A stretch of 64,000 nt of DNA from the NCBI GenBank assembly GCA_035714785.1, contig DASTLQ010000011.1, positions 6,124 through 70,123 of the forward strand, read 5' to 3'. Source of the DNA: Minisyncoccota bacterium (GTDB taxonomy: Bacteria; Patescibacteriota; Minisyncoccia; Phycocordibacterales; UBA9973). A program made the translations under genes and the position numbers. The notes under the pieces were generated by a model. The model saw only the letters and a program-made list of their open reading frames with translations, did no database searches and was not told where the DNA came from. Each line of letters opens with the position of its first letter. The first letter of the stretch is position 1. Positions 5,356-57,974 of this stretch are shown here, piece by piece.

Positions 5356-6252
5356 ATGCCGAACCGTCGAAAAAACTCAAAGGTCCTATACGTCGTGTTT
5401 TTCCTGTTGCTCTTAAATGTGTTCTTATTTGTTCATGATAGGCGGGATTCAGATAGGGGGCTTGTGTTTGCTATGTTGGATGTTGGGCAAGGAGATGCAC
5501 TATATATAGAGTCACCGACTGGCACACAGGTGTTAGTAGATGGAGGACCTCTGCGGAAAATTCTTGGAAAGCTTTCCGAGGTGATGCCTTCGTATGATCG
5601 CAAGATAGATGCCCTCATCATGACTCATTCAGACTCGGATCATATTTCGGGTTTCAGTGAAGTCCTGTCGGCGTATGAGGTTGGACAAATGTTTGAACCG
5701 GGCGTGGCCACTGATTCTCTAATTTATGAAAATCTAAAAAAAGAATTAGAAGAAAAAAAGATTCCAAGCGTGATTGCACGAAAGGGAATGCGACTCCATC
5801 TCGGTGGTGGTGCCGTGATTGATATAATTTTTCCAGATAGAGATGTGTATGATTGGGAGACAAATATGGCCTCTCTAGTTTTGAAACTCACCTATGGAGA
5901 TGTTTCCTTCATGCTCACCGGAGATGCTTTGATCGAAACTGAAGAATTGATTTTAAAAGAAACGCCAGCAGAATTTTTAAAAAGCACATATCTAAAAGCT
6001 GGACATCATGGTTCAAAAACTTCCACTTCGCAGAAATTCGCTGAAGCAGTTTCTCCGGAGTACGCGTTAATTTCTGCGGGAAGGGAGAACAACTACGGCC
6101 ACCCGCATCCCGAGGTTTTAGAGATTTTAAAAAGTATAGGTGCACAGATTTTACGCACTGACCATTCTGGCACCCTGTGGATAAAGTGTAAGGGGACCCC
6201 TTACCCCAACATGCAAGGGGACCCCTTGCATGTTATCCACAGGTTCCTATGA
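5356..6252 (+). CDS. ComEC-type metallo-beta-lactamase domain protein (stand-alone MBL half of ComEC)
   Basis: N-terminal TM, then LDVGQGDALYIESPTGTQVLVDGG and HSDSDHISG (MBL HxHxDH). The C-terminal 20 aa (LWIKCKGTPYPNMQGDPLHVIHRFL) are encoded by the palindromic repeat 6185-6243. Confidence 0.75.
   Translation: MPNRRKNSKVLYVVFFLLLLNVFLFVHDRRDSDRGLVFAMLDVGQGDALYIESPTGTQVLVDGGPLRKILGKLSEVMPSYDRKIDALIMTHSDSDHISGFSEVLSAYEVGQMFEPGVATDSLIYENLKKELEEKKIPSVIARKGMRLHLGGGAVIDIIFPDRDVYDWETNMASLVLKLTYGDVSFMLTGDALIETEELILKETPAEFLKSTYLKAGHHGSKTSTSQKFAEAVSPEYALISAGRENNYGHPHPEVLEILKSIGAQILRTDHSGTLWIKCKGTPYPNMQGDPLHVIHRFL
6185..6243. repeat. palindromic repeat family A copy forming the 3' coding tail of the ComEC-MBL ORF
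   Basis: AGTGTAAGGGGACCCCTTACCCCAACATGCAAGGGGACCCCTTGCATGTTATCCACAGG. Confidence 0.85.
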
Positions 6253-11374: not shown

Positions 11375-11498
11375 GCAAAGTGCAAGGGGGCTGTGGATAA
11401 CATGTAAGGGGACCCCTTACACTTTATCCACACATACCACCCTTACCTGTGGATAACATGCAAGGGGACCCCTTACCCCTTATCCCGGCGCCCCTTAC
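11375..11498. repeat. cluster of family A repeat units with four DnaA-box 9-mers (argS-ileS intergenic)
   Basis: ..GTGCAAGGGGGCTGTGGATAACATGTAAGGGGACCCCTTACACTTTATCCACACATACCACCCTTACCTGTGGATAACATGCAAGGGGACCCCTTACCCCTTATCCCGGCGCCCCTTAC.. Confidence 0.9.
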
Positions 11499-11524: not shown

Positions 11525-14500
11525 ATGGCCGACGAAAACAAAGAAAACAAAGAAAATACGACTTCGAAATCCGAAAGCGCTCTGCGAGAAGAGGGCATTT
11601 TAAAATTTTGGGAAGAAAATCATACTTTTCAAAAAACCCTACAACGACCCTCCCCTAAAGGCGAATTCATTTTTTACGAAGGTCCTCCTACAGCAAACGG
11701 AAAGCCCGGCATCCATCACCTCGAAGCTCGCGCTTTCAAAGATGTTATCCCTCGATACAAAACCATGTCCGGCTACCATGTGCGCCGAAAGGGGGGCTGG
11801 GATACTCACGGCTTGCCAGTGGAATTACAGGTGGAAAAAAAGCTAGGACTTGATTCCAAGAAGGCGATCGAAGAGTATGGTATCGCAAAATTTAACGAAG
11901 AATGTAAAGAAAGTGTTTGGGAGTATGTGGATCTTTGGGAAAAATTTACCAGCAGGACAGGATATTGGCTGGACCAGAAAGATGCGTATGCTACTTATGA
12001 CAACACATATATTGAATCAGTTTGGAATATTTTAAAACATGTAGACGAGCAAAAACTTCTATACAAAGATTACAAAGTGGTGCCATGGTGTCCACGTTGT
12101 GGAACGGTGCTATCTTCGCACGAACTTGCTCAAGGATATGAAGATGTAAAAGATCTTTCCGTGTATGCAAAATTTCGACTCGCCGATGGTAGCCTCGCCG
12201 ATGCTGGCCTCGCCGATAACGACCTAGCGAATAAAGACACATACATTCTTGCATGGACCACTACTCCATGGACATTGCCCGGCAACGTCGCGCTAGCAGT
12301 AGGGGAGGATATTGATTATGTAAAAGCAAAAGTTGGCGAAGAAGTGCTAATCCTAGCCAAAGAAAGAATTTCTATTTTACCCGAAGGGTATGAAATTTTG
12401 GAAGAAATAAAAGGAGCCAAGCTCGTGGGCCTCGAATATGAACCCCTGTATCCATTCCTAGCAGAAACTATTTCCGAAACCGAAAAGCCAAAATTAGAAA
12501 AAGCATACAAGATATACAGCGCAGACTTCGTGACTACTACAGACGGTACTGGAGTGGTTCATACAGCAGTGATGTATGGACAGGACGACTTTGCGCTCGG
12601 CACTAAAATCGGACTTCCAAAACACCACCTCGTAGGCTTGGATGGAAAATTTCTACCAGGCACAGGAAACTTCGAAGGAAGATTTGTGCGTGATGAAGAT
12701 GTGGCCGTAGATGTGATCAAAGATCTTGCTTCCCGCAATCTTTTATTTAAAAAAGAAAAATACGAACACTCATATCCGCATTGCTGGCGCTGTCACACTG
12801 CACTCATCTACTACGCTCGTGATTCATGGTATATAAAAATGTCTGATCCAAGGATCAAAGACAAAATGATCTCGGAAAACAAGAGCATTAACTGGGAGCC
12901 AGCCCATATTCGCGATGGAAGGTTTGGGGAATGGCTAAGAGAAATAAAAGATTGGGCAATTTCTCGAGAGCGATATTGGGGTACTCCTTTGCCAGTATGG
13001 GAATGTAATAAATGTCACAAGCGCGAAGTGATCGGTAGCCTCGAAGAGCTTCGAGGTAAGGCAAAAAAATCTGGCAACAAATATTGTGTGATGCGTCACG
13101 GGGAGACTGACAAGAATATCACTAATACTATATGTACTACTGTAAATAGCGGATCCCAACTTACAGAAAATGGAAAAAAGAGCACCCTCGCTACGGCCGA
13201 AAATCTTAAAAAAGAAAATATAAATATTATTATTACTTCTGAATTCCATCGCACTCGAGCAACGGCGGAAATAGTAGCTCCCTTGCTGGGAATTCCACAA
13301 TCAGACATAGTCGTAGATCCTCGACTGGGAGAAATAAAAGTACCAAGCTATGAGGGAAAAAGCTGGACCGAATATCACAAAGATTATCCTCATACGGTAG
13401 AAAATTTTACTAAAGCTCCAGAGGGAAATGAATCATACGAAGACGTGAGAGCTCGCTTGGCAGATTTCCTTTGTGATATTGAAAGTAAATATCAAAATAA
13501 AAATATTCTTATCATCACTCATGGTGCTCCTTCATGGCTCATGACTGCTGTTTCGCGATTGCTTGATGTAGACGAGACACTTAAACTTGTTCAAAGTTCA
13601 AAAGATTATCATTACTTGGCAAATTCTGAAGCGCAGGTGCTTCCTTTCTCTCCTTTTCCTCATGACGGTAAAGGAAATCTAGATCTGCATCGCCCATACA
13701 TCGACAATATGATCGTAGAGTGTGAATGTGGTGGTACTTCGGAGAGAGTGAAAGAGGTGGTGGACGTTTGGTTTGACTCCGGCGCTATGCCGTTTGCCCA
13801 AGATCATTATCCTTTCAAAAATAAAAAATGGGTAGATGGTCCCGGATATCCTGCGGACTATATTTCTGAAGCTATCGATCAGACTCGTGGTTGGTTTTAT
13901 ACCTTGCATGCTATCGGAGTACTTCTCGGAAAGGGAAAGGCATATAAAAATGTAATTTGTTTGGGGCACCTGCTGGATTCCGCTGGTAAAAAAATGTCCA
14001 AATCTCTCGGCAACATAGTGGATCCGTGGATTATGATAGAAAAATACGGAGTAGACACTTTGCGCCTGTGGATGTATTCAGTAAATCAACCTGGAGAATC
14101 AAAGAATTTCGATGAAAAAACAGTCACCTTGGTGCATCGTCAGTTTTTCGGTCTACTGTACAATGTGCTTTCTTTCTATGAACTCTATCGTGAAAAAGAT
14201 TTGGAAAAAAATGAAGAACCAAAACCGCAAAACGTGCTCGATATTTGGATAATAGTGAGATTGCACGAACTGGTGGAGCTTTGTACAAAAGGTCTAAATG
14301 AATTTAAACTAATTGAACCAGTCCGAGCGATTCGTGATTTTATTGATGACCTATCCACCTGGTACTTGCGACGTTCGCGAGAGAGAATTAAAGAAGGGGA
14401 CAAAGAAGCAAAAGCTACTCTGTATTATGTTTTGCGCACTCTTTCCCAATTGCTCGCTCCCTTTGCTCCATTTTCCGCCGAAGACATCTGGCAAAAATTG

Positions 14501-15076
14501 CGCCGAGAAGGAGATGAAGGAAGCGTACATCTTTCCACTTGGCCAAAAGTAAAAATTTCCATTTTGCGATCATTTACTAAGCGCGATACATATGTAATTG
14601 AACACATGATAAAAACTCGCGAGATAGTGACTCTTGGCTTGGAAGCAAGACAGCGAAGAGGAATAAAAGTACGTCAGCCTCTGGGAATGATTCGGGTCAA
14701 AGATTTTGGCTTGCCAGAAGAATATGCAGAGGTAGTGAGAGACGAGCTAAATGTAAAAGAAATTCGCAGAGACCCTGGCATCAAAGAAGAAGTGCACCTC
14801 GAAACAGAAATCACCCCGGAGCTTCGCCAAGAAGGTGACTATCGCGAAGTGGTCCGTGCGATACAAGATTTGCGAAAGAAAATCGGACTTATGCCAAACG
14901 ACCTCGTCACTCTCACTATCTCCCTATCAGACCCCTTGAAATCCGTCATCGAAAAATACGAGCGTGAACTTTCTAAAGTAGTAGGAGCGACCGAAATAAA
15001 ATACGAAGAAAATGATGGCGAGGAATCTAAGATTGGAGACGAAACTGTCAAAATAAAAATCCAGAAAAGATCCTAA
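11525..15076 (+). CDS. ileS: isoleucine--tRNA ligase with an inserted histidine-phosphatase (PGM-like) domain
   Basis: GPPTANGKPGIHH (HIGH region), CP1 editing region, KMSKSLGN; 1183 aa. Between WECNKCHKREVIGSLEEL and LDLHRPYIDNMIVECECGG sit ~200 aa carrying VMRHGETDKN and ITHGAP, the signature of the histidine phosphatase superfamily branch 1. Confidence 0.9.
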   Translation: MADENKENKENTTSKSESALREEGILKFWEENHTFQKTLQRPSPKGEFIFYEGPPTANGKPGIHHLEARAFKDVIPRYKTMSGYHVRRKGGWDTHGLPVELQVEKKLGLDSKKAIEEYGIAKFNEECKESVWEYVDLWEKFTSRTGYWLDQKDAYATYDNTYIESVWNILKHVDEQKLLYKDYKVVPWCPRCGTVLSSHELAQGYEDVKDLSVYAKFRLADGSLADAGLADNDLANKDTYILAWTTTPWTLPGNVALAVGEDIDYVKAKVGEEVLILAKERISILPEGYEILEEIKGAKLVGLEYEPLYPFLAETISETEKPKLEKAYKIYSADFVTTTDGTGVVHTAVMYGQDDFALGTKIGLPKHHLVGLDGKFLPGTGNFEGRFVRDEDVAVDVIKDLASRNLLFKKEKYEHSYPHCWRCHTALIYYARDSWYIKMSDPRIKDKMISENKSINWEPAHIRDGRFGEWLREIKDWAISRERYWGTPLPVWECNKCHKREVIGSLEELRGKAKKSGNKYCVMRHGETDKNITNTICTTVNSGSQLTENGKKSTLATAENLKKENINIIITSEFHRTRATAEIVAPLLGIPQSDIVVDPRLGEIKVPSYEGKSWTEYHKDYPHTVENFTKAPEGNESYEDVRARLADFLCDIESKYQNKNILIITHGAPSWLMTAVSRLLDVDETLKLVQSSKDYHYLANSEAQVLPFSPFPHDGKGNLDLHRPYIDNMIVECECGGTSERVKEVVDVWFDSGAMPFAQDHYPFKNKKWVDGPGYPADYISEAIDQTRGWFYTLHAIGVLLGKGKAYKNVICLGHLLDSAGKKMSKSLGNIVDPWIMIEKYGVDTLRLWMYSVNQPGESKNFDEKTVTLVHRQFFGLLYNVLSFYELYREKDLEKNEEPKPQNVLDIWIIVRLHELVELCTKGLNEFKLIEPVRAIRDFIDDLSTWYLRRSRERIKEGDKEAKATLYYVLRTLSQLLAPFAPFSAEDIWQKLRREGDEGSVHLSTWPKVKISILRSFTKRDTYVIEHMIKTREIVTLGLEARQRRGIKVRQPLGMIRVKDFGLPEEYAEVVRDELNVKEIRRDPGIKEEVHLETEITPELRQEGDYREVVRAIQDLRKKIGLMPNDLVTLTISLSDPLKSVIEKYERELSKVVGATEIKYEENDGEESKIGDETVKIKIQKRS

Positions 15077-20246: not shown

Positions 20247-20340
20247 AGTGTAAGGTGTAAGGGGCCCGGCGCAGGGTAAGGGGTCCCCTTACACTTTATC
20301 CACACCCTGTGGATAACATGCAAGGGGACCCCTTACCCCT
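20247..20340. repeat. family A repeat cluster (M16 peptidase-metG intergenic)
   Basis: GTGTAAGGTGTAAGGGGCCCGGCGCAGGGTAAGGGGTCCCCTTACACTTTATCCACACCCTGTGGATAACATGCAAGGGGACCCCTTACCCC. Confidence 0.9.
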
Positions 20341-21778: not shown

Positions 21779-21848
21779 GGTAAGGGGTCCCCTTACACTT
21801 TATCCACACCCTGTGGATAACATGCAAGGGGACCCCTTACCCTTACAC
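21778..21848. repeat. family A repeat (metG-tatD intergenic)
   Basis: GGGTAAGGGGTCCCCTTACACTTTATCCACACCCTGTGGATAACATGCAAGGGGACCCCTTACCCTTACAC. Nearly identical to the 20280-20340 copy. Confidence 0.9.
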
Positions 21849-26175: not shown

Positions 26176-28377
26176 CTAGATGACGTTTTGTCCCGACTCA
26201 TCGCGATTAATTCTTTCTAGTACTTCTCTTGGCTTTGCTCCATCTCCGGGACCGATCACTCCGCGTTCTTCTAGGGTATCCATCAGTCTTGCTGCACGAG
26301 CGTATCCAAGCTTTAGCTTTCTTTGTAGGAATGAAGTAGAAGCTTTTCCTGACTCTACTACGCAGGCGCGAGCTTCTTCATACATTTCATCTTCGTCGCC
26401 ATCGAGGGTGCTTTCAAAAATACTTTTATCAGCAGAAATTGAGCCTTCGGTAAAGGTGATCTCTTGATTTACCTCATCTCTATATGCATCAGCCAGATAT
26501 TTTACAACGTTTTTCACTTCAAGCTCAGAGATAAAGGCGCTTTGCAAACGTTCAGGCTGAGCATCTCCAGAAGAATAGAGCATATCTCCAGCTCCGAGTA
26601 GTTTTTCTGCTCCTCCTGCATCCAAGATAGTGCGAGAGTCTATCTGAGAAGAAACCTTTAGGGCAATACGGGCAGGGATGTTTGCTTTGATGAGTCCAGT
26701 GATGACATTTACTTCAGGACGCTGTGTAGAAAGGATGAGGTGAATGCCGACAGCACGGGACATTTGTGCCAAGCGCACGATTGCGGATTCTAGTTCTCTA
26801 GGATATGAGCTCATGATGTCTGCCAATTCGTCGATGATGATGACAATATATGGCATTCGGTCCATTCCTTCTTCTCCATCATCGGTTTTACCCTTTTTCG
26901 CCTTTTCGCTGAGGATATTTTGGTGGTAAGAGGTGATATCACGCACAGATTCAGACTCAAGGATGTCATAGCGCCTATCCATTTCCTTTGCTGCCCATTT
27001 TAGGGCTAGGATAGCTTTCTTTGCGTCTGTAATGACTGGAGTGAGTAGGTGAGGGATGTTTTTATACAAAGTAAGCTCCACTCTCTTGGGGTCTATCAAG
27101 ATGAATCTGAGGTCTTCTGGTCCGTTTCTATACAAAAGGGAAGTGACTATAGAGTGGATGGATACAGACTTACCGCTACCAGTGGTTCCTGCTACTAGAC
27201 AGTGGGGCATTTTGGCCAAGTTTCCAAAAGCAGCACGTCCAGCGATAGATCGGCCGAGGGCGATGGTGAGGGGTTTGCCAGAATCCCTGAATTTTGCATC
27301 CGCCAGCATAGTAGCCAAGCCAACAGTAGACTTCACTCTGTTTGGGATCTCGATCCCCACGAGGGATTTGCCAGGGATAGGGGCTTCGATACGTATAGGG
27401 TGAGCAGCCAGAGCTAGGGCAAGGTCGTTTTGCAATCCTACGATACGAGATAGCTTCACTCCTTCGGCAGGCTTTAGGGCATAGCGAGTGACGGTAGGTC
27501 CGATGGTGATTTCATCCATTTCAACTTCGATGCCAAAGTTTTGCAGTGTGCGTTTGATGATGATGGAGTTTGCTTTCACATCTCCAGTATTTGGCTTTCC
27601 TTTGTCTTCCTCAAGGAGCGAGAGTGGGGGAGGGGTGTAGCTCGAAGCAAGCCCATGATTTTTTGTTTTTAGTTTTGTGAATCCAAAATCCTCTTCCTCC
27701 TCCTTTTTTCCATCTTTCTTTACCGGTTCGGTTACGATCGGCTCCTTTTCCATTGGCAGTTCAATTTTTTCTCCGAGAAGAATAGTAGGACCATCGTCTT
27801 CTTCATCTCCTAGAGCTTCGAGTTTTTCATCGAGCACATCTTTTTTGTTGGAGATCAGTCTGTAGAGAGATTTCAAAAGTGGGCCTAAGTCAGGACGTGC
27901 ATCAAACATGAGGAATATAGAAATGATGAGGATGGCGCCGAGGAACACGATGCTCGCATAGATATCAAAAAGAGAAACAAAAGGCACCGCCAGTACCTGC
28001 CCAAGCACTCCTCCAGCATGAGATCCTGAAGCGACGTCTATCATGCCGAGACCAGAGAGTAAAAATAGAACGGAAGCAAAAACTTGCATCAGTCCGTACT
28101 GCGTTCTTTCAGGTTTCAAAAAAGCAGTTCCGATCATAGCAAAAAGAATCGGAATGAGCATGTATCCGATTCCTACCAAGTAATCAAAAAATTCATAAGT
28201 GACCCTGCCCGCTTTTCCAGCGAAGTCAAAGTACGACATCAAAAAGAATAAAGCGACCACAAATGAGACTACCGATGCGATGCCGTAGCGTGTGTCATTG
28301 GAGATAGGAACTTTGCGTTCCCGGGGGGATTCTTTTTGCGAAACGAGTTTAGATTTCTTCTTGCTGTTTTTTGCCAT
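26176..28377 (-). CDS. ftsK: DNA translocase FtsK/SpoIIIE
   Basis: N-terminal TM segments, a linker, then motor domain LVAGTTGSGKSV and FtsK-gamma-like C-terminus; 733 aa. Confidence 0.93.
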   Translation of the reverse strand: MAKNSKKKSKLVSQKESPRERKVPISNDTRYGIASVVSFVVALFFLMSYFDFAGKAGRVTYEFFDYLVGIGYMLIPILFAMIGTAFLKPERTQYGLMQVFASVLFLLSGLGMIDVASGSHAGGVLGQVLAVPFVSLFDIYASIVFLGAILIISIFLMFDARPDLGPLLKSLYRLISNKKDVLDEKLEALGDEEDDGPTILLGEKIELPMEKEPIVTEPVKKDGKKEEEEDFGFTKLKTKNHGLASSYTPPPLSLLEEDKGKPNTGDVKANSIIIKRTLQNFGIEVEMDEITIGPTVTRYALKPAEGVKLSRIVGLQNDLALALAAHPIRIEAPIPGKSLVGIEIPNRVKSTVGLATMLADAKFRDSGKPLTIALGRSIAGRAAFGNLAKMPHCLVAGTTGSGKSVSIHSIVTSLLYRNGPEDLRFILIDPKRVELTLYKNIPHLLTPVITDAKKAILALKWAAKEMDRRYDILESESVRDITSYHQNILSEKAKKGKTDDGEEGMDRMPYIVIIIDELADIMSSYPRELESAIVRLAQMSRAVGIHLILSTQRPEVNVITGLIKANIPARIALKVSSQIDSRTILDAGGAEKLLGAGDMLYSSGDAQPERLQSAFISELEVKNVVKYLADAYRDEVNQEITFTEGSISADKSIFESTLDGDEDEMYEEARACVVESGKASTSFLQRKLKLGYARAARLMDTLEERGVIGPGDGAKPREVLERINRDESGQNVI

Positions 28378-29816: not shown

Positions 29817-31694
29817 ATGAGTAATTTACTAAAATCAAAAGTCCTTCTTGGATTAATGGTTGTAGCAGTTATGGTCGCTGGAGTTTTTGCTTTCACAGCA
29901 AACACTGCAGACGCTCAGGTTGCATGTACAGTCGTTTCTACATTGAGGCAGGGTTCTGTTGGCACAGAAGTAATGTGTCTTCAGACCAAACTTGGAATCA
30001 CTGCTGATGGCAAATTCGGTCCTATGACCGCAGCTGCTGTTAGAGCTTTCCAAACAGCAAACGGTCTATCCGCTGATGGCATTGTAGGTCCTATGACCCG
30101 CTCTGTCCTAGGGGGTGGAGCTGTTGTGACTCCTGGACTTCCAGCTGGTTGTACTTCAACCGCAGGATATAGCCCAGTAACAGGTCAGCCATGTTCAGGT
30201 GGTTCAGGCGTAAATCTTCCAGCAGGTTGTACTTCAACCGTTGGATACAGCCCAACTACCGGAGTAAAGTGTGATGGAACTTCAACCCCACCCGTAACAA
30301 CTACAGGTGAAGGTGTTGTTACATTATCTTACGCTCCCGTTCCAGCCAACAGCACTTCTGTTGACAAAGGACAAAGCAAGAACGTAATGGCATTAGAGGT
30401 GAAGGCTACTGGTTCTGATATGAATGTTAACCGTATTTGGTTGAACATTGGTACACGAGCTTGGTTGTCTGCTAGTGAAGTAGCTATCATGGATGGATCA
30501 ACAGTTATTGCGACTCTTCCACTTTCAGCTTCCACAGTTAGCGAAGTTACAGCAGGTTCTGTATGGCGTCTTGAGTTTAACGGTTTGAACATAAACGTTC
30601 CTGTTAATACTACAAAGACATTGACCTTCAAGGTTACTCGTCCAGAACTTACAAGTGCTAATGACAATATAGTTATTGCTACATCAAGTACCTTAAGAGC
30701 AACTGATGGAGCAGGATTCTCTGAGACTTACACTCTAGGGGGTCGCACATGGGTTATGTCATCTAACACTGCTGCAGTAGGTACATTGACAAACACTCTA
30801 AGCGCAAGCAATCCAAAAGCTCAGTCAAACTCTGGTCTTAGCACTACAGCTGGTAGTTTGACAGCAGTTGAATTACTTCGTTTCGACCTTAAAGCGAAAG
30901 ACGGAGCTGTTAATGTTACTAGAGTTCAAGGTACAGTTGCTGTAGCTAGTGGAACTTGTGCGTTAGCAGAATGTCTTGCTTCCGTAGAACTTCGCGACGG
31001 TTCAACTGTTCTTTCTTCAAAGTCAGCGGCTTCACCGTTTGACTTTAACGAATTGGACATTGATATTGCTGAGGGCGCTACTAAGACTCTATCTGTTTGG
31101 GGTCAGGCTAATCACGTTGCTGCGAGCTTCGTAGTAAAAGGTGATGCCATCGTTGCTGCTGTAACAGCAGTGACTGGTACATCAGGTCCTTCCTTTACAG
31201 CTGCAAACGCTGCAAACACTGTAACTGGAAATAATCAATACCTCTTTGAGTATGCTCCTACAATCACGTTAGGTGCAGCTTCTGCAACGAACTCAGGAGT
31301 AGATAATAGAGATGGCTCGTTCTCACTTGCCTTCAATATTACTGCCCCAGCTGGAAGTGATATATATGTATCCAATACAGCTGTTTCTACTAACGCTGCT
31401 AGCAGGTTCTTTGCTGAAAAGACAGCAGCCATGGGAGGAACATTGGCTGTGTCCCTTTCCGCTACCAACGCTACTGCTGTAGGTGGAGACTTGGCTTATA
31501 GAATTTCCGCTGGACAAACTGCTACGTTTACCGTAACAGGATTGGTACCAGGTGCAACGGGAACAGCTGGCTTTACTGGTATGAAGTTGACTGAATTTGA
31601 TTGGAATACTACTAATGCTACTGCTGGAGACGTAGACCAAACTTGGGGTCTAACAGACTTCAAGACGCCTGCAGTGTTTGTTACAGGCGCTTAG
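29817..31694 (+). CDS. large Thr/Ala/Gly/Ser-rich cell-surface protein with N-terminal peptidoglycan-binding domain
   Basis: N-terminal signal/TM. PG_binding_1-like repeats (LQTKLGITADGKFGPMTAAAVRAFQTANGLSADGIVGPMT). Then ~500 aa of low-complexity T/A/G/S/V-rich beta sequence. Confidence 0.7.
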   Translation: MSNLLKSKVLLGLMVVAVMVAGVFAFTANTADAQVACTVVSTLRQGSVGTEVMCLQTKLGITADGKFGPMTAAAVRAFQTANGLSADGIVGPMTRSVLGGGAVVTPGLPAGCTSTAGYSPVTGQPCSGGSGVNLPAGCTSTVGYSPTTGVKCDGTSTPPVTTTGEGVVTLSYAPVPANSTSVDKGQSKNVMALEVKATGSDMNVNRIWLNIGTRAWLSASEVAIMDGSTVIATLPLSASTVSEVTAGSVWRLEFNGLNINVPVNTTKTLTFKVTRPELTSANDNIVIATSSTLRATDGAGFSETYTLGGRTWVMSSNTAAVGTLTNTLSASNPKAQSNSGLSTTAGSLTAVELLRFDLKAKDGAVNVTRVQGTVAVASGTCALAECLASVELRDGSTVLSSKSAASPFDFNELDIDIAEGATKTLSVWGQANHVAASFVVKGDAIVAAVTAVTGTSGPSFTAANAANTVTGNNQYLFEYAPTITLGAASATNSGVDNRDGSFSLAFNITAPAGSDIYVSNTAVSTNAASRFFAEKTAAMGGTLAVSLSATNATAVGGDLAYRISAGQTATFTVTGLVPGATGTAGFTGMKLTEFDWNTTNATAGDVDQTWGLTDFKTPAVFVTGA

Positions 31695-31766: not shown

Positions 31767-31931
31767 TTGCTGAGATCTCACCAAAAGATATCCACAGTCT
31801 CTATTTTATCTTTATATATTTGTAATTGGTATAATATAAACAGCTTTTAGAGCGTATCGCTTCTGGTCCGAAGTCGCGCTCGTTTAGTGTCTGTTTTCTT
31901 ATTAAAAATAATTATTAGAAATAAAAATAAT

Positions 31932-33944
31932 ATGAGTAAAGTATTTAAAAATGTTTTTCTTTCAGTCGGAATGCTTGCCTTCACATTGGCATTGACTGGA
32001 TTAGTTTCTACCAACACTGCAGAAGCGGCAGAATGTACTATGACCACAGGTACATGGACCGGTGTTGCGGGTGGTGTGAATGACGGTGCTACAAATGGTA
32101 CTTCTGTATTCACTGGATGTACGGGTAATTTGACCCCAGCTGTAGGTGATACTCTTCTTATCCCTGCTAACGTTGTTCTTCAAATTACTGGTGCTGGTAC
32201 AGCAACAGTAGCAGGAGTAACAATTGCTGACCCAGTAGCTACTGGAGCAAACGGTATTACTGTTGACACCGGTAAGACGTTTGCTGTTACTACTAATGTA
32301 ATTTTTGCTGCAAATACCGGAGCTCTTAATCAGACCATAACATTGAGTGGTACTGCGGCTCTTGCAGTTACAGGCGACATTACCATGAACGGTACAAGTA
32401 GTGACGGAAACCAGTCCATTACAGGTGCGGGGGCAGGCGTGGTTAATGCTGCCAATATTACTATTGCGGGTGGCTCTGCCTCGGGCGCAACTTCTATAAC
32501 AACAGCAACTGGAGTAATTCAAGTGAACGGTGCAACTGGTATTACGTTTAGCGGTAATGCGGCTAAAGCCCAAGTGGGTGTTAGTGGAGCAGGATCGCTT
32601 AATTTGGCTGGAACTACTTCAACTTTAGGAACAGGCGGTACAGTTACTCTAGCCGCTGCTTCAACTACTACTTTTTCCGGTTCAGGTAATCAAACTATAA
32701 ATACATATACATATGGAAATTTAACGATTAGTGGAGCAGGTACAAAAAGCATTGTAGCAGCAGGTACGGCTACTGTCGCTGGTGCACTTACTTTAACTCA
32801 CAGCCTTAACGTAGGGACTGGTACTATAGCTGTTACTGGTGCTACTACAATTGCTGATGCCAAGACACTTACAGTAGCTTCTGGTGGTACGGCTACTCTC
32901 GCAGCATTTACTGGTACTCTTACGGGATCTATAACAAACGCTGGTACTGTAACTGCTTCTGGTGCCATCACTCTTGGTGTTGGAGGAACAGTAACTAACA
33001 GTGGCACCTTCACTGCTGCTGGGACCTTTGGTACAGGCGCAGGTATTGTAGTTAATACCGGCACATTAAATTTGGCTGGAGCTGCTGGTAATGCTTTAAA
33101 TATCACGACACTAACTGCAAACACAGCAGGTACTATCAACTACACTCTTGCTGGAGCACAGACAGTCTTTGCTGGTGCTTACTACAATCTTAGTTTGGGT
33201 GGTAGTGGAGCAAAGACAATTGCAACTGGTACATCAGTCGTTAATACACTGTCTATGATTACGGGAGTTTCAGGTACCATTACAACAGGTGGAACTTCAA
33301 CTGCCCATATATTTAGATTTAATGGGTCAGCGCAAGCTACTGGTTCTTGGGGCACAGATACTTCAGCTGCCGCGAACAAAAGCGCTGTCTACTTTACAAC
33401 TGGCGCGAATGGTACGATAACAGTTGCACATAGACCTAGCGCAGGATCAGCTCCTGTTTACACCACGCCATCTACTCCTACAACCACCCCTCCGGTTACA
33501 ACCCCAGAAACCCCAGTCACTCCAGAAACTCCTGCAAATGATTTCGCAGGATGTGGAAACAGGACTACTGGATTTAGCACAAGCACAGGAAAATCTTGTG
33601 TGGGAAATACTGCCGGAGCTTCCGCAAACGATTTCGCTGGATGTGGAAATAGAACAACAGGATTTAGCCCAGCTACCGGTAAGTCTTGTGTAGGAAATAC
33701 TGTTTCTGCTCCACAAGGCAATGCTTATGCCCTCGGTACTGCATTAGTTAAATCAGGATCAAAGGGCGAAGCTTGCAAGGCTTGGCAGATGTTCTTGAAT
33801 GCTAAAGCAAATGCTGGACTTGCTACGGACGGAATGTGTGGACCAATGACCATGGCTAAAGCAAAAGCTTGGCAACAATCTGCAGGCTTGGTAGCTGATG
33901 GACTCTTGGGCGCAATGAGCCGAGCAAAGGCATTGATGCAATAA
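31932..33944 (+). CDS. large Thr/Gly/Ala-rich cell-surface/adhesin-like protein with C-terminal peptidoglycan-binding domain
   Basis: Signal peptide MSKVFKNVFLSVGMLAFTLALTGLVSTNTAEA. GT(A/G)-rich repetitive body. Two tandem 35-aa Cys-containing repeats (NDFAGCGNRTTGFS.(S/A)TGKSCVGNT) and a C-terminal PG-binding domain (ATDGMCGPMT..LVADGLLGAM). The ORF track start 31887 is trimmed to the signal-peptide Met. Confidence 0.7.
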   Translation: MSKVFKNVFLSVGMLAFTLALTGLVSTNTAEAAECTMTTGTWTGVAGGVNDGATNGTSVFTGCTGNLTPAVGDTLLIPANVVLQITGAGTATVAGVTIADPVATGANGITVDTGKTFAVTTNVIFAANTGALNQTITLSGTAALAVTGDITMNGTSSDGNQSITGAGAGVVNAANITIAGGSASGATSITTATGVIQVNGATGITFSGNAAKAQVGVSGAGSLNLAGTTSTLGTGGTVTLAAASTTTFSGSGNQTINTYTYGNLTISGAGTKSIVAAGTATVAGALTLTHSLNVGTGTIAVTGATTIADAKTLTVASGGTATLAAFTGTLTGSITNAGTVTASGAITLGVGGTVTNSGTFTAAGTFGTGAGIVVNTGTLNLAGAAGNALNITTLTANTAGTINYTLAGAQTVFAGAYYNLSLGGSGAKTIATGTSVVNTLSMITGVSGTITTGGTSTAHIFRFNGSAQATGSWGTDTSAAANKSAVYFTTGANGTITVAHRPSAGSAPVYTTPSTPTTTPPVTTPETPVTPETPANDFAGCGNRTTGFSTSTGKSCVGNTAGASANDFAGCGNRTTGFSPATGKSCVGNTVSAPQGNAYALGTALVKSGSKGEACKAWQMFLNAKANAGLATDGMCGPMTMAKAKAWQQSAGLVADGLLGAMSRAKALMQ

Positions 33945-35980: not shown

Positions 35981-36052
35981 ATGTAAGGGGACCCCTTACA
36001 CCTAAACCTGTGGATAACATGCAAGGGGACCCCTTACATGTTTCCCTTACAT
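35981..36052. repeat. family A repeat (gpmI-ATPase intergenic)
   Basis: ATGTAAGGGGACCCCTTACACCTAAACCTGTGGATAACATGCAAGGGGACCCCTTACATG. Confidence 0.9.
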
Positions 36053-36076
36053 TCGTTTGTTGCTATAATGTAACCA

Positions 36077-38848
36077 ATGGAAGGAACATTTCTCAAAGAA
36101 ATGCCTCAATTTAAAACGCCTGAAGAGGAGTTAGCGTATTTGCGTGCTCACATGGAGAAAAGAGAAAAGGAACTCGCGGACTTGGGGCACATCGAACGGC
36201 CTCGTGAAAAAGCTGCTGAGGAAATTCTTGGAGAGTATAAAAATACTCCATTAAAGGACGCCATGCATCCGGATTCAACCATGAGCGAAAAGGAAGCAAA
36301 AGGAATTGTGCTTGCTCTGAAGTCTGAAGCGCATGATTCAATCATGGAAGAATTGCTCGGCATTGTGATGACTAAGGGCGTGAAGAACGCGCTTTCTGTG
36401 GTGGAAAATATGAACAATCCACACATCTCCGACGATTTTCACAGAATCCTCATTCAGTACCTGCGTGCGCCGGGTGTTCCGTATCCTTTCAAAGAAGGAA
36501 CTGCACTGTATAAATCTTTTCACCTCACTCTTTTTGAAATTACTCTACCGCCTCCGCTCGATGAAGCAGACAAGCAAAAAAGTTTCAAAGAATTCATCGG
36601 TGCCATGGAGCAATTTTATGCCGGCATGCATTCTATTTCCCTAGGCAAAAACAATATCGAGGAAAATTATTTTGCTCTCGAAGTTGCGCTCTCGGCTGGA
36701 AGCGATGAAGTAGTAATCTATGCCGCAATTCCTGATCAGTACATCACACTTTTTGAAAAACAGGTGATGGCTTTTTACAATCAGGCAAAAATGATCGAGG
36801 TAAAAGATGATTTCAATATTTTTAATGAAAAAGGTGCAGCGGTGGGAGCATATGCCATGCTTTCTGAAAAAGCGGTCCTTCCTCTTCGCACTTATGAAAA
36901 TCTCGACCATGATCCAATGAAAAATATTTTAAATGTTTTTTCAAAACTTGATATTCATGGAGAGGGTGCCGCTATCCAGATTGTAATAGCGCCAGCTGGT
37001 GAAAAATTCATTCAAGACTTCAATGCAATTTTAGAAGATGTGAAAGATGGAATGTCTGTCAAACACGCAGCTGACAATTTGTACAAGTTTAATAAGGCTT
37101 TTTTGAACATTTCTAAAGAATTTCTGTTCGGAACAAAAAAGAGCGAAGACAAATCTGACAAAAATATGTCGGGTAGGAGGCCAGTGGACGAAGGGGCCGC
37201 AGAGAAAATTGGTAAAAAACTTTCCAGCAGTATCATGAAAGCAAATATTCGAGTGATCGCATCTGCAGAGACTCATGCTCGTGCGGAAGCTATTCTCGGA
37301 GAAATTGAATCTTCGTTTAATCAGTTTACGGAGCCTGCAAGCAACTCCATAATTTTTGAAAAAGTGACCGGAAGCAAGGTAAAAAACTTTTTCCATGATT
37401 TTTCATATCGTGCTTTTAGTCGAGATTATACTCTGCCACTAAATTTAAAAGAACTTTCTTCTGTTTTCCATTTCCCAATAGGGATTGGAAGTATGCCCCA
37501 GCTCCGAGAAGCAAAGGCGGGAATTGCACCTGCTCCGATTCAGATGGGAGGAGAGGGAATTGTGCTTGGGATAAACAGCTATCGAGGAAAAGATACTCAA
37601 GTCCGGATGACGCGCGAAGATCGCATGCGTCATTTCTATGTGATCGGTCAGACAGGAACAGGAAAGACCAACATCATGCTCAATATGATCACGCAGGATA
37701 TCGTGAACGGCGATGGTTGTTGCTATATAGATCCGCACGGCACCGATATTCAGACTATTCTTTCGCGTATTCCTAAAGAGCGCATTGACGATGTTATATA
37801 TTTTGATCCCGCTTACATTGCTCGTCCGATGGGATTGAATATGCTCGAATACGATGTTCAATATCCTGAACAAAAGACATTCGTAGTGAATGAAATGATG
37901 AATATTTTCAACAAGCTTTTTGATATGAAAGTGGGAGGCGGGGCGATGTTTGAACAATATTTCCGCAATAGCGCCTTTCTAGTGATGGAAGACCCTGAAT
38001 CTGGCTCTACTTTACTTGAAATTACTAGAGTGTTGGCGGATAAAGAATTTCGAGATATGAAACTTGCGAAGTGCAAGAATCCAATCATCAAACAATTTTG
38101 GATTTCGGCTGAGCAGACTACAGGAGAACAATCCTTGGCAAACTTTGTGCCCTACATTTCTTCTAAATTCGACAATTTCATTTCTAACGACATCATGCGA
38201 CCCGTTGTGCTTCAGCAGAAATCCGTTTTTGATTTTAGAAAAATAATGGATGAGAAAAAAATACTGCTGGTGAATCTTTCTAAAGGAAGGCTTGGGGATA
38301 TAAACGCAAACTTGATCGGGCTGGTGCTGGTTGGAAAAATTCAGATGGCAGCACTGTCGCGTGTAGATATGTTTGGAAAGCCTATGAATGATTTCTATCT
38401 GTATATAGACGAGTTCCAAAATGTGACCACAGATTCCATCGCTTCTATTCTTTCTGAAGCTCGAAAATATAGATTGTCTCTAAACATCGCGCACCAATAT
38501 ATTAATCAGCTTGAGGAAAGTATAAAAAATGCAGTGTTTGGAAACGTAGGATCGATGGCAGTATTCCGCGTGGGAACAGAAGACGCAAACTTTTTGGAAC
38601 AGAAATTTAAGCCGGTATTTACGTCGGCGGACATCGCGCGACTCGATAACTACAATGCCTATATGAGTATGCTGGTAAAAGGGGAGCCGGTGAAGCCGTT
38701 TAATATAAAGACTTTGGCGCCTGAAGCGGGGAATCCAAGCATCGTGGATAGCTTGAAAGAACTTTCCTACTTGAAATATGGCCGAGACCGACAAGAAGTG
38801 GAAACCGAAATCATGTCTCGTTACAGCGGCCTCGAAGGCAAGGTGTAA
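36077..38848 (+). CDS. VirD4/TraG/TraD-like (FtsK-HerA superfamily) P-loop ATPase with ~420 aa N-terminal soluble domain
   Basis: HFYVIGQTGTGKTN Walker A; YLYIDEFQN Walker B; ARKYRLSLNIAHQ matches the conserved TraD/VirD4 C-terminal motif. No TM helices. The stop codon TAA is supplied by the flanking palindromic repeat. Confidence 0.65.
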   Translation: MEGTFLKEMPQFKTPEEELAYLRAHMEKREKELADLGHIERPREKAAEEILGEYKNTPLKDAMHPDSTMSEKEAKGIVLALKSEAHDSIMEELLGIVMTKGVKNALSVVENMNNPHISDDFHRILIQYLRAPGVPYPFKEGTALYKSFHLTLFEITLPPPLDEADKQKSFKEFIGAMEQFYAGMHSISLGKNNIEENYFALEVALSAGSDEVVIYAAIPDQYITLFEKQVMAFYNQAKMIEVKDDFNIFNEKGAAVGAYAMLSEKAVLPLRTYENLDHDPMKNILNVFSKLDIHGEGAAIQIVIAPAGEKFIQDFNAILEDVKDGMSVKHAADNLYKFNKAFLNISKEFLFGTKKSEDKSDKNMSGRRPVDEGAAEKIGKKLSSSIMKANIRVIASAETHARAEAILGEIESSFNQFTEPASNSIIFEKVTGSKVKNFFHDFSYRAFSRDYTLPLNLKELSSVFHFPIGIGSMPQLREAKAGIAPAPIQMGGEGIVLGINSYRGKDTQVRMTREDRMRHFYVIGQTGTGKTNIMLNMITQDIVNGDGCCYIDPHGTDIQTILSRIPKERIDDVIYFDPAYIARPMGLNMLEYDVQYPEQKTFVVNEMMNIFNKLFDMKVGGGAMFEQYFRNSAFLVMEDPESGSTLLEITRVLADKEFRDMKLAKCKNPIIKQFWISAEQTTGEQSLANFVPYISSKFDNFISNDIMRPVVLQQKSVFDFRKIMDEKKILLVNLSKGRLGDINANLIGLVLVGKIQMAALSRVDMFGKPMNDFYLYIDEFQNVTTDSIASILSEARKYRLSLNIAHQYINQLEESIKNAVFGNVGSMAVFRVGTEDANFLEQKFKPVFTSADIARLDNYNAYMSMLVKGEPVKPFNIKTLAPEAGNPSIVDSLKELSYLKYGRDRQEVETEIMSRYSGLEGKV

Positions 38849-39006
38849 GGGGACCCCTTCAAGGGTCCACCTTCGCCAGAGGCGAAGGCGGACCCTTACC
38901 TGTGGATAACATGCAAGGGGACCCCTTACACTTTATCCACCTGTGGATAACATGCAAGGGGACCCCTTCAAGGGTCCACCTTCACCAGAGGCGAAGGCGG
39001 ACCCTT
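38843..39006. repeat. composite repeat cluster: family A units + two copies of family B GC-rich hairpin (AAGGGTCCACCTTCRCCAGAGGCGAAGGCGGACCCTT)
   Basis: GTGTAAGGGGACCCCTTC-AAGGGTCCACCTTCGCCAGAGGCGAAGGCGGACCCTT-ACCTGTGGATAACATGCAAGGGGACCCCTTACACTTTATCCACCTGTGGATAACATGCAAGGGGACCCCTTC-AAGGGTCCACCTTCACCAGAGGCGAAGGCGGACCCTT. Confidence 0.9.
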
Positions 39007-39080
39007 TTGCAAATAAAGGGCTTTCTGGTATACTCATAATATTAAAACCTAATTGGCGTAAGCCATTTTTTTGTATATAT

Positions 39081-39665
39081 ATGAAGCACCCAAAAGAAGA
39101 AAGAACATATGTGATGATTAAGCCCGACGGAGTAAGAAAGGGTTTGACAGGAGAGATTATTCGTCGTTTTGAACAGCGTGATCTAAAGATCGTGGCACTC
39201 GAAATGTTTCAGCCAGTTCATGAGCAGATAGATAATCACTACCCAAAAAATGAAGAATGGATCACTCGCCTTGGAGGCAAGACTCTTAGTACTTATGAAA
39301 AATACGGGTACGACGCTATGGCAGATTTTGGTACAACTGAAGCGGAAAAAATCGGTCCAGAGATCCGAAAGTGGCTTATGGACTATATGGTCAGCGCTCC
39401 TTTGGTAAAAATGGTGGTACAGGGTGTGCATGCAGTGGATGTAGTTCGAAAAATTGCAGGAGACACTATGCCTTACAAAGCAGATATGGGAACAATTCGC
39501 GGAGATTTCTCTATCGATTCTCCTGCGCTTGCAAATAAAGAAAAAAGGGCAGTGATGAATATCGTGCATTGTTCTGAAACTCCTGAAGAAGCTGAACACG
39601 AGATCAAACACTGGTTTGGAAATTCTGTGATTCACGAGTACAAGCGTTTTGGAGTGGATGCATAG
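39081..39665 (+). CDS. ndk: nucleoside-diphosphate kinase
   Basis: ERTYVMIKPDGV, NIVHCSE (active-site His). The ORF track start 38943 (GTG; MDNMQGDPF..) lies in the repeat cluster, so the start is trimmed to ATG 39081. Confidence 0.88.
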   Translation: MKHPKEERTYVMIKPDGVRKGLTGEIIRRFEQRDLKIVALEMFQPVHEQIDNHYPKNEEWITRLGGKTLSTYEKYGYDAMADFGTTEAEKIGPEIRKWLMDYMVSAPLVKMVVQGVHAVDVVRKIAGDTMPYKADMGTIRGDFSIDSPALANKEKRAVMNIVHCSETPEEAEHEIKHWFGNSVIHEYKRFGVDA

Positions 39666-39936: not shown

Positions 39937-40314
39937 ATGGAAAGGAAAAAATTAGGAATACCGTTGGTAATACTCGTTTTTTTTATACTGTTCATCAACT
40001 ATGTGGCGATGAAGTTTCATTGGTATTCTGCTCTTCCATGGTTTGATATGCCCATGCATTTTCTGGGAGGATTCTGGGTAGCTCTTTTGGTTGCATTTAT
40101 TCTACCTAGTCGACACTTTTCTATACATTTTGTTTTAAAAATACTTGCTGGCGTTCTTTTGATCGGCATACTGTGGGAAATTTTTGAAGTGACATTAAAT
40201 ACTATTACCGTAAAAGATACTTTCGACATGGTGGACACTTTGTCGGATCTTTTCTTCGATATCGTTGGTGGCTTGGCTGCTACGCTAGTTCTTTATCGTA
40301 GCTCCAAAGTGTAA
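39937..40314 (+). CDS. VanZ-like family small membrane protein
   Basis: 125 aa, 3-4 TM. DMPMHFLGGF and WEIFEVTL..DTFDMVDTLSDLFFDIVGG resemble VanZ-family motifs. The stop TAA is supplied by the adjacent repeat. Confidence 0.5.
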   Translation: MERKKLGIPLVILVFFILFINYVAMKFHWYSALPWFDMPMHFLGGFWVALLVAFILPSRHFSIHFVLKILAGVLLIGILWEIFEVTLNTITVKDTFDMVDTLSDLFFDIVGGLAATLVLYRSSKV

Positions 40315-40390
40315 GGGGACCCCTTGCATGTTAAGGGTCCACCTTCGCCTCTGGCGAAGGCGGACCCTTGGGCGAAGGTGGACCCTTAAC
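40309..40390. repeat. family A unit + family B hairpin(s) (VanZ-like/beta-CASP intergenic)
   Basis: GTGTAAGGGGACCCCTTGCATGTT-AAGGGTCCACCTTCGCCTCTGGCGAAGGCGGACCCTTGGGCGAAGGTGGACCCTTAAC. Confidence 0.9.
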
Positions 40391-41782: not shown

Positions 41783-41866
41783 GGGTAAGGGGTCCCCTTG
41801 CATGTTATCCACAGGTAAGGGTGGTGGGTGTGGATAAAGTGTAAGGGGTCCCCTTACACCTTACTT
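41783..41866. repeat. family A repeat pair (beta-CASP/LOG intergenic)
   Basis: GGGGTAAGGGGTCCCCTTGCATGTTATCCACAGGTAAGGGTGGTGGGTGTGGATAAAGTGTAAGGGGTCCCCTTACACC. Confidence 0.9.
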
Positions 41867-51983: not shown

Positions 51984-52070
51984 ACATGCAAGGGGACCTG
52001 TGGATAACATGCAAGGGGACCCCTTACACTTTATCCACACCCACTAACATGCAAGGGGACCCCTTACACC
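51984..52070. repeat. family A repeat cluster (HD hydrolase/recG convergent intergenic)
   Basis: CATGCAAGGGGACCTGTGGATAACATGCAAGGGGACCCCTTACACTTTATCCACACCCACTAACATGCAAGGGGACCCCTTACACC. Confidence 0.9.
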
Positions 52071-57909: not shown

Positions 57910-57974
57910 GGTGTAAGGGGACCCCTTACCCTGTGGATAACATGCAAGGGGTCCCCTTACATGTTATCCACAGG
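57910..57974. repeat. family A composite 45-bp near-perfect palindrome (two inverted DnaA boxes around the core)
   Basis: GGTGTAAGGGGACCCCTTACC-CTGTGGATAACATGCAAGGGGTCCCCTTACATGTTATCCACAGG. Confidence 0.9.

Follow-up and report, generated by a model that had tools for sequence, protein, structure and literature searches.

Identification and features of the gene

We analyzed a 64,000-nt stretch of a Minisyncoccota bacterium genome (GenBank assembly GCA_035714785.1, contig DASTLQ010000011.1, positions 6,124 to 70,123 of the forward strand), hereafter called the window. The gene under study lies at 36077-38848 on the plus strand and encodes a 923-aa ATPase of the type IV coupling protein (T4CP) lineage. 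This open reading frame (ORF) was exactly as reported in a first-pass annotation, which had been made from the sequence alone, and it was judged to be a real gene, as it has over 1,500 homologues, the closest of them 919-924 aa long and 76-79% identical. The Walker A, Walker B and ARKYRLSLNIAHQ motifs named in that annotation were all located, and its remark that databases give such proteins only generic names was correct. The features of the gene were as follows:

36077-38848, plus strand: complete ORF with an ATG start, 923 aa, long-form T4CP-lineage ATPase without a transmembrane (TM) helix
36077-36496, plus strand: helical N-terminal region, aa 1-140, with helices at residues 15-130 in the AlphaFold2 (AF2) model; fused partner
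36509-37486, plus strand: alpha/beta N-domain, aa ~145-470, corresponding to PF26449, with a fold like the N-terminal domain (NTD) of VirB4/TrwK
37088-37177, plus strand: disordered loop rich in Lys and Glu within the N-domain, aa 338-367, with a predicted local distance difference test score (pLDDT) below 50 in both models
37646-37669, plus strand: Walker A (P-loop) GQTGTGKT, aa 524-531
37871-38251, plus strand: all-alpha domain inserted in the ATPase, aa ~599-725, nine AF2 helices, at the same position as the all-alpha domain (AAD) of TrwB
38396-38413, plus strand: Walker B YLYIDE, aa 774-779
38459-38497, plus strand: ARKYRLSLNIAHQ motif, aa 795-807, aligning with TrwB GRKAGLRVVAGLQ in the TraG-D_C region
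38735-38827, plus strand: two conserved C-terminal helices in the AF2 model, aa 887-917, consensus KELS..KYGR.R.EVE.EI

A family alignment of 26 diverse sequences was used both for the conservation analysis and for the AF2 model. In this alignment, Walker A residues G524, T526, G527, G529 and K530 did not vary, and Walker B residues D778 and E779 as well as the residues of the RK..Q motif were nearly invariant. Judging from these residues, the ATPase appeared to be catalytically intact. No TM helix was found in the 923-aa protein, as had been claimed; the highest Kyte-Doolittle (KD) 19-residue mean was 1.54, at aa 742 within the ATPase core.

Upstream of the ATG, a TATAAT hexamer was observed at a distance of 7 nt (window 36064-36079), and no Shine-Dalgarno sequence was visible. 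A leaderless or near-leaderless transcript would fit this arrangement. The consensus promoter scan skipped the hexamer because a matching -35 element was absent, and promoter and terminator counts for the region were at shuffle level.

The motor domain belongs to the coupling-protein branch

Pfam scans of the two halves of the protein, as proposed in the first-pass annotation, gave matches in the C-terminal half and no local match in the N-terminal half. The C-terminal half partially matched TrwB_AAD_bind (PF10412), at 22.4 bits against a gathering threshold of 20.5, and TraG-D_C (PF12696), at 23.2 bits against a threshold of 22. T4SS-DNA_transf (PF02534) did not match the 923-aa protein; it did match the short-form orthologues of about 800 aa, in which PF02534, PF10412 and PF12696 were all present and which carried VirD4/TraG-type names in their source databases. 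The NCBIfam TraD models gave partial matches, all far under their cut-offs. The best PDB sequence matches were TrwB and DotL, with the single sequence as well as with the family profile.

The AF2 model of the full protein had a mean pLDDT of 83.4; its core is RecA-like, and nine helices are inserted between Walker A and Walker B. In Foldseek searches, TrwB superposed on the C-terminal ~410 residues with a target-normalized TM-score (TMt) of 0.62-0.66. The mean pairwise identity of the all-alpha domain was ~62% among the long forms; for the ATPase together with the AAD it was ~60%, and for the N-terminal parts ~30%. Because of the Pfam and PDB matches, the superposition on TrwB and the conserved catalytic residues, the assignment of the motor domain as T4CP-like, in the VirD4/TraD/TrwB branch of the FtsK-HerA superfamily, holds, although the 923-aa sequence falls at the margin of what the curated models cover. 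The VirD4/TraD/TrwB-type identity put forward in the first-pass annotation was thus supported by Pfam scores marginally above threshold, a TrwB TMt of 0.65, PF02534 in the short forms and the operon slot of the plasmid relatives described below.

Other branches of the superfamily were matched less well. None of the FtsK Pfam domains (alpha, beta and gamma) matched the 923-aa protein. DUF87 scored 18.7 bits, below its cut-off of 23.2, and the PADLOC model mad8 matched aa 495-819 at E 1.6e-13; both were partial P-loop matches only. We found no HAS-barrel, no nuclease or methyltransferase partner and no defence island of the kind that goes with HerA/mad8 defence ATPases, and the context was one of housekeeping genes.

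The N-terminal half consists of two parts

The N-terminal half had been described as novel and without a recognizable motif. No match was found in the Pfam copy that we scanned (21 members were tried), so the earlier description was right as far as that copy goes; the scans were empty because the PF26449 model was missing from it. PF26449 was present, as a precomputed annotation, in every close and short-form homologue; its assignment here is taken from this annotation of the homologues rather than from direct scoring of the 923-aa protein. In addition, phrog_5156 covered aa 151-919 at E 6e-83. The claim of novelty could not be upheld, since the half corresponds to PF26449/phrog_5156, also occurs on plasmids and in phages of Bacillus, and is predicted to fold like the VirB4 NTD. 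A literature search on PF26449 returned nothing.

An exhaustive search with aa 1-490 yielded 1,031 representative clusters at 50% identity, which fell into two architectures. Long forms of ~920 aa matched from residue 1, and short forms of ~800 aa matched from query residue ~145. In 10 of the 14 short-form loci, aa 1-140 had a counterpart in a soluble ORF of its own, 125-156 aa long, which lies directly upstream in the same orientation. BLASTP related aa 1-140 to the upstream ORF at E 2e-7, and a hidden Markov model built from long-form aa 1-142 recovered five upstream ORFs at E 1e-10 to 4e-5. Because of this homology, aa 1-140 was identified as a fused partner. PF26449 was placed at aa ~145-470 because the short forms, which are without aa 1-140, retain it.

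The N-domain was then considered at the level of structure. Modelled alone, it gave a predicted TM-score (pTM) of 0.82. In the Foldseek search against the PDB, the top 12 matches were all TrwK/VirB4 chains from the R388 type IV secretion system (T4SS), at E 6e-6 to 8e-4, with a probability of ~1.0 and a query-normalized TM-score (TMq) of 0.40-0.46. Next in rank, at E 5e-3, came a ferredoxin-like fold that is unrelated. With the full-length model, TrwK ranked first over ~900 columns. In BFVD, the N-domain matched same-family proteins from Bacillus phages with TMq up to 0.66, among them phage G Gp156 at TMq 0.64, and also one protein named "Component of type IV transporter system". PDB profile searches with the N-domain returned only chance-level matches to uS19. 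These models indicated a VirB4-NTD-like predicted fold for the N-domain, a resemblance at the fold level. Structural modelling of this region, which the first-pass annotation had suggested, gave a model that matched TrwK/VirB4.

Adjacent Gp155 and Gp156 of Bacillus phage G (BFVD G3MBM1 and G3MBM2) both matched the N-domain fold, at E 1e-7 and 1.5e-18, respectively. Their predicted structures suggest that they may be a tandem pair of paralogues.

The short forms are membrane-anchored and the long forms are not

In all 14 short-form loci, the ~800-aa orthologue had an N-terminal TM helix (KD 1.8-3.4) and, after it, a K/R-rich stretch; this arrangement puts the ATPase on the cytoplasmic side. None of the long forms had a TM helix. 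The ancestral form of the lineage is one that was anchored by a single N-terminal TM helix. Most simply, Paceibacteria would have fused the upstream partner gene to the N-terminus and lost the anchor.

Relatives on plasmids and phages

Distant relatives with the full architecture were found by tblastn, at 20-26% identity, in 539 plasmids (271 from Bacillus and 82 from Streptomyces) and in 47 Bacillus-type phages. On a 24.7-kb B. subtilis plasmid, an 886-aa relative headed an operon with the ICEBs1/Tn916 gene order, namely the relative, a Replic_Relax relaxase, TcpC, TcpE, an AAA_10 VirB4 and a 784-aa protein, the last annotated as a conjugal transfer protein and possibly VirB6-like, from its position only. 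This order puts the relative in the coupling-protein slot. An Embleya plasmid showed the order PrgI, an ATP-binding protein (possibly VirB4-like, and known from its annotation alone), the relative, Replic_Relax and NlpC/P60. In two independent monoderm phyla, Bacillota and Actinomycetota, the lineage thus has the T4CP position, with a Replic_Relax relaxase as its partner. The T4CP p48 of pLS20 was rejected as a comparator, being a canonical VirD4 with two TM helices.

The family profile was compared by HHalign with two proteins of the B. subtilis plasmid. Against the relative, the probability was 100%, with E 7e-40 over 638 columns that included the N-domain. Against the AAA_10 VirB4, an MPF-FA-type protein used as the VirB4 comparator in place of R388 TrwK, it was 1%. 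The latter result bears on whether the 923-aa protein is itself a divergent VirB4, that is, the assembly ATPase of a T4SS and not a coupling protein. The TM-less two-domain layout and the length of ~800-920 aa are those of VirB4, and TrwK/VirB4 provided the best full-length PDB matches and the sole N-domain matches. However, AAA_10 and CagE_TrbE_VirB were unmatched, the comparison with a bona fide VirB4 largely refuted this explanation, and the B. subtilis relative coexists with a separate AAA_10 ATPase in its operon, as the Embleya relative does with its annotated ATP-binding protein. VirB3, VirB6 and VirB8 neighbours were not found, and the VirB4 of Patescibacteria has been described near dnaA together with TrsD and VirB3/6/8 (PMC12102498). 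We consider it very improbable that the protein is a VirB4.

The relative in phage 031MP002 is encoded in the early region, where its neighbours are a Gam-like inhibitor, an ERF recombinase and a replisome organizer. IMG/VR contained relatives of the C-terminal domain (CTD) only. The closest relative consisting of the ATPase domain only was observed on the Bradyrhizobium plasmid NZ_CP064708.1 (locus L084, 7179-9305 in locus coordinates), with 31% identity at E 2e-61. It sits among CHAT-domain and TPR genes, a defence-like context unlike the conjugative and Patescibacterial ones.

Genomic context in Patescibacteria

Among GTDB species genomes, the family was found in at least 300 species, and all of the named ones are Patescibacteria. 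The neighbourhood was compared across 80 related loci. In Paceibacteria, the conserved order was S5-L15-secY-adk-(pyrH-like)-map-[gene]-ndk-small TM protein-beta-CASP nuclease (RNase J-like)-SLOG; the window retained the downstream half of this order but had gpmI upstream. The orthologues were 51-77% identical, on par with the adjacent housekeeping genes. In distant clades the ndk linkage was gone, and the neighbours, identified by eye, resembled dnaX, tgt and FKBP. In Paceibacteria, the gene is a vertically inherited single-copy core gene between the spc operon and ndk. As candidate roles, the first-pass annotation had put forward DNA uptake, transfer akin to conjugation and an episymbiotic function. 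The association with competence and type IV pilus (T4P) genes that it raised was not borne out: conserved linkage exists, to the spc ribosomal operon and ndk, but linkage to comEC or T4P genes was not conserved. No comEC or T4P gene was among the conserved neighbours, and comEC in the window is 32 kb from the gene.

A coupling protein working in reverse was considered in view of this conserved order beside ndk, the beta-CASP (RNase J-like) nuclease, adk and the pyrH-like kinase. According to this explanation, a hexamer would pull host RNA or DNA inward via a T4SS or another channel (ComEC), feeding nucleotide salvage. T4CPs are nucleic-acid-dependent translocases, and comEC and recJ are also present in the window. 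However, adk and map are members of the universal spc operon, so their proximity could be incidental; the distant clades do not keep the ndk linkage; and comEC is distant, as noted above. Moreover, to our knowledge an importer role is known for no T4CP. A 2026 preprint has reported the uptake of host RNA by a Patescibacterium, with T4SS-like tubes suspected (10.64898/2026.06.21.733656). In S. epibionticum, comEC was dispensable (PMC12857230). We regard reverse coupling through any channel as unlikely, and its narrower form, a cytoplasmic motor importing host RNA or DNA through the Patescibacterial T4SS, as decidedly unlikely.

Searches within the window for partners of the plasmid type were negative. 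The plasmid relaxase, VirB4, TcpC, TcpE and PrgI gave no tblastn match below E 0.1, and neither the small membrane protein at 39937-40314 nor the other unannotated window proteins gave a signal as VirB3-like or other T4SS parts. The window encodes a complete FtsK at 26176-28377 on the minus strand, together with RecA, RecG, RecJ, ComEC and PilM. With this gene set, and without detectable T4SS genes, the gene is neither a substitute for FtsK nor part of a mobile element. A role as an FtsK replacement was rejected on the presence of the complete FtsK.

The same gene set also bears on a T4SS-independent cytoplasmic DNA motor for replication restart, recombination or segregation, a role that HerA or the phage relatives may also have. 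Such a motor would agree with the solubility of the protein, with the genes adjoining the phage relatives, with HerA among the fold matches and the weak DUF87/HerA profile matches, and with the dnaX neighbour seen by eye in some clades. However, FtsK, RecA, RecG and RecJ are already present, membrane-anchored short forms fit poorly with purely cytoplasmic repair, the nearest characterized contexts are conjugative, and a NurA-like nuclease partner was not found. This explanation seems rather unlikely to us.

Membership in a mobile element or an anti-phage defence system, as a component or a remnant, would account for the mad8 match on the ATPase domain, for the relatives on plasmids and phages, and for the Bradyrhizobium CTD-only relative among CHAT and TPR genes. 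It is disfavoured by synteny, as the position between spc and ndk is stable in many species. The gene is conserved to the same degree as the surrounding housekeeping genes, no integrase, methyltransferase or nuclease partners were found at the conserved loci, IMG/VR held CTD-only relatives alone, and the flanking repeats are genome-wide rather than element ends. We find this explanation hardly credible.

Flanking repeats and other features of the window

Two clusters of palindromic repeats resembling repetitive extragenic palindromes (REP-like) flank the gene:

35981-36052, no strand: upstream REP-like palindrome cluster, an intergenic repeat found across the genome that has no function in the gene
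38843-39006, no strand: downstream REP-like palindrome cluster, overlapping the stop codon, genome-wide and not gene-specific

The first-pass annotation had noted these clusters on either side and a stop codon within one of them. Both observations stand, the TAA at 38846-38848 overlapping the first downstream palindrome GTAAGGGGACCCCTT. Its view of the repeats as a feature bracketing the gene does not stand, since the same repeats occur in most intergenic regions and have no bearing on the gene. The sequence AAGGGGACCCCTT had 55 strand-hits in the window against 0.06 expected. The REP-like unit is a composite palindrome, cTGTGGATAAcatgcaaGGGGACCCCttacactTTATCCACA, with its core palindrome at 28 sites; the outer arms are a perfect DnaA-box 9-mer, found at 22 sites against 0.42 expected. 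Examples of units are 745-802, 6176-6241, 11392-11474, 20278-20334 and 21782-21838, and further ones are 35985-36035, 38847-38968, 41787-41855, 51999-52065 and 57915-57972. No copy was found in the 80 related Patescibacteria loci, which points to a lineage-specific expansion. The repeats were rejected as the boundary of a mobile element because they are genome-wide and absent from the related loci. Interspersed with the REP-like family is another repeat, AAGGGTCCACCTTCGCCAGAGGCGAAGGCGGACCCTT, of the hairpin type, at 38860-38895, 38969-39006 and ~40330-40360.

Downstream, the plus-strand ndk ORF is recorded as 38943/39084-39665. The called ORF begins at a GTG within the repeats, and the true start is probably the ATG at 39084. 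A promoter-like site was found ahead of ndk at 39006-39034 in the promoter scan. The Pfam NDK match in the window Ndk falls into two stretches, which implies an insertion. The ndk orthologues downstream of the gene in loci L001-L078 formed two classes, with ~84-88% and ~28-33% identity to the window Ndk, and the split was found among otherwise similarly related genomes. This pattern suggests, at the sequence level, that ndk may have been replaced in place by a different ndk type.

Elsewhere in the window, the plus-strand gene at 11525-15076 encodes an isoleucyl-tRNA-synthetase-like protein of 1,183 aa with a complete His_Phos_1 domain (aa 521-676) inside the catalytic domain. Two large secreted-looking proteins, encoded on the plus strand at 29817-31694 and 31887-33944, matched PG_binding_1 and no other family. 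The latter is 685 aa long, rich in Thr, Gly and Ala, and carries a duplicated NDFAGCGNRTTGFS..TGKSCVGNT motif.

Proposed function

Collectively, the architecture runs from a putative helical adaptor, through the PF26449 alpha/beta domain with its predicted VirB4-NTD-like fold, to a TrwB-like nucleotide-binding domain with an all-alpha insertion. By analogy with other T4CPs, the protein would assemble as an ATP-driven hexameric ring. The VirB4-NTD-like domain and the helical adaptor may recruit it to the cytoplasmic face of a T4SS, presumably the chromosomal relaxase-less Patescibacterial T4SS encoded elsewhere in the genome, where it would select a substrate (nucleic acid or protein) and power its passage. 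We put the chances that the protein is such a T4CP-lineage hexameric translocase, docking on the chromosomal relaxase-less T4SS, at about even.

Several observations weigh against this proposal. The Pfam scores of the 923-aa protein are marginal, and it is without the membrane anchor. The VirB4-NTD likeness is moderate (TMq ~0.45, root-mean-square deviation 8-10 A) and comes from one solved protein, and no sequence-profile backing for it was found in Pfam, PDB profiles or HHalign. The phage relatives occur in replication and recombination modules rather than transfer modules. No gene for a relaxase, VirB4, TcpC/E, PrgI or VirB3/6/8 was detectable within the 64-kb window, and no T4SS or relaxase gene was a conserved neighbour in the 80 related loci; the link to a T4SS therefore rests on homology and the literature only. 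In S. epibionticum, a t4cp gene, whether of the PF26449 family or not, was reported to be non-essential, whereas the T4SS genes were essential (PMC12102498).

Previous studies have reported 5,713 VirD4-type T4CP homologues in 2,918 of 3,035 Patescibacteria genomes (96%), 148 of them near virB4, and VirB4-type T4SS in 2,417 Patescibacteria genomes, mostly without a relaxase (PMC12102498). The same study stated that exaptation of the orphan T4CPs "cannot be ruled out". The Patescibacterial T4SS is essential for epibiotic growth, and comEC is not (2025 review, PMC12857230); this T4SS is nevertheless without a relaxase or a known substrate. In view of the tiny genomes of Patescibacteria and a conservation at the level of the ribosomal operon, the 923-aa protein must do something important, and its family stands as the phylum's chief unexplained "orphan coupling protein". 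The architecture, the ancestry and the loss of the anchor provide testable handles on the membrane partner, the polymer that is moved and the direction of movement, and the findings may be relevant to the acquisition of host nucleic acids by these parasites. If an import motor were the true explanation, it would explain the core position beside ndk, the RNase J-like nuclease and adk in organisms unable to make nucleotides, and it would offer a candidate for the mechanism of host-RNA uptake left unresolved by the preprint (10.64898/2026.06.21.733656).

Comparison with known systems

With TrwB/VirD4/TraD (R388 TrwB, PDB 1E9R/1GKI; DotL, 6SZ9), the 923-aa protein has in common the P-loop fold, the inserted all-alpha domain and the RK..Q motif. 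It differs in having no N-terminal TM segment of the canonical T4CP kind (two TM helices in pLS20 p48), and ~490 extra N-terminal residues take the place of that segment. The sequence similarity is marginal and restricted to the motifs, and the gene is chromosomal and core rather than mobile, with no adjacent relaxase or T4SS genes. With VirB4/TrwK (R388 T4SS, PDB 7O41-7O43 and 8RTD), the TM-less two-domain layout is common to both, but the likeness is at the fold level only (TMq ~0.45), and VirB3 or VirB8 partners are not nearby.

True homologues, over aa ~190-880, are the PF26449 plasmid proteins of Bacillus and Streptomycetaceae named "DUF87 / T4SS conjugative DNA transfer family" (for example, WP_121549396.1 and WP_331738717.1). 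Unlike the 923-aa gene, they lie in conjugation operons with a Replic_Relax relaxase and a second ATPase. They are ~22-26% identical and without the aa 1-140 helical region, and the Bacillus protein has an acidic C-terminal tail. The phrog_5156 proteins of Bacillus phages (phage G Gp156, CP-51, JL, SPO1-like and 031MP002 gp52) have the same architecture of N-domain and ATPase, with 20-25% identity by tblastn and an N-domain TMq of 0.61-0.66. They are phage-encoded, in early or replication-recombination regions, and also without the helical region.

The orphan Patescibacterial T4CPs surveyed by Quinonero-Coronel et al. (2025, PMC12102498), nearly all away from virB4, represent the same phenomenon, and the PF26449 family is presumably among the T4CP homologues counted there. 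That survey gives no description of the domain architecture, with its VirB4-like N-domain and fused partner, of the division into long and short forms, or of the synteny at spc-ndk. The orphan T4CPs of Patescibacteria were thus known before, and their architecture and function were not described in that literature. The present analysis adds the architecture, in which a fused adaptor and a putative VirB4-like docking domain precede a TrwB-like motor, and an ancestry in the Replic_Relax-type conjugation systems of monoderms, with loss of the anchor in Paceibacteria.

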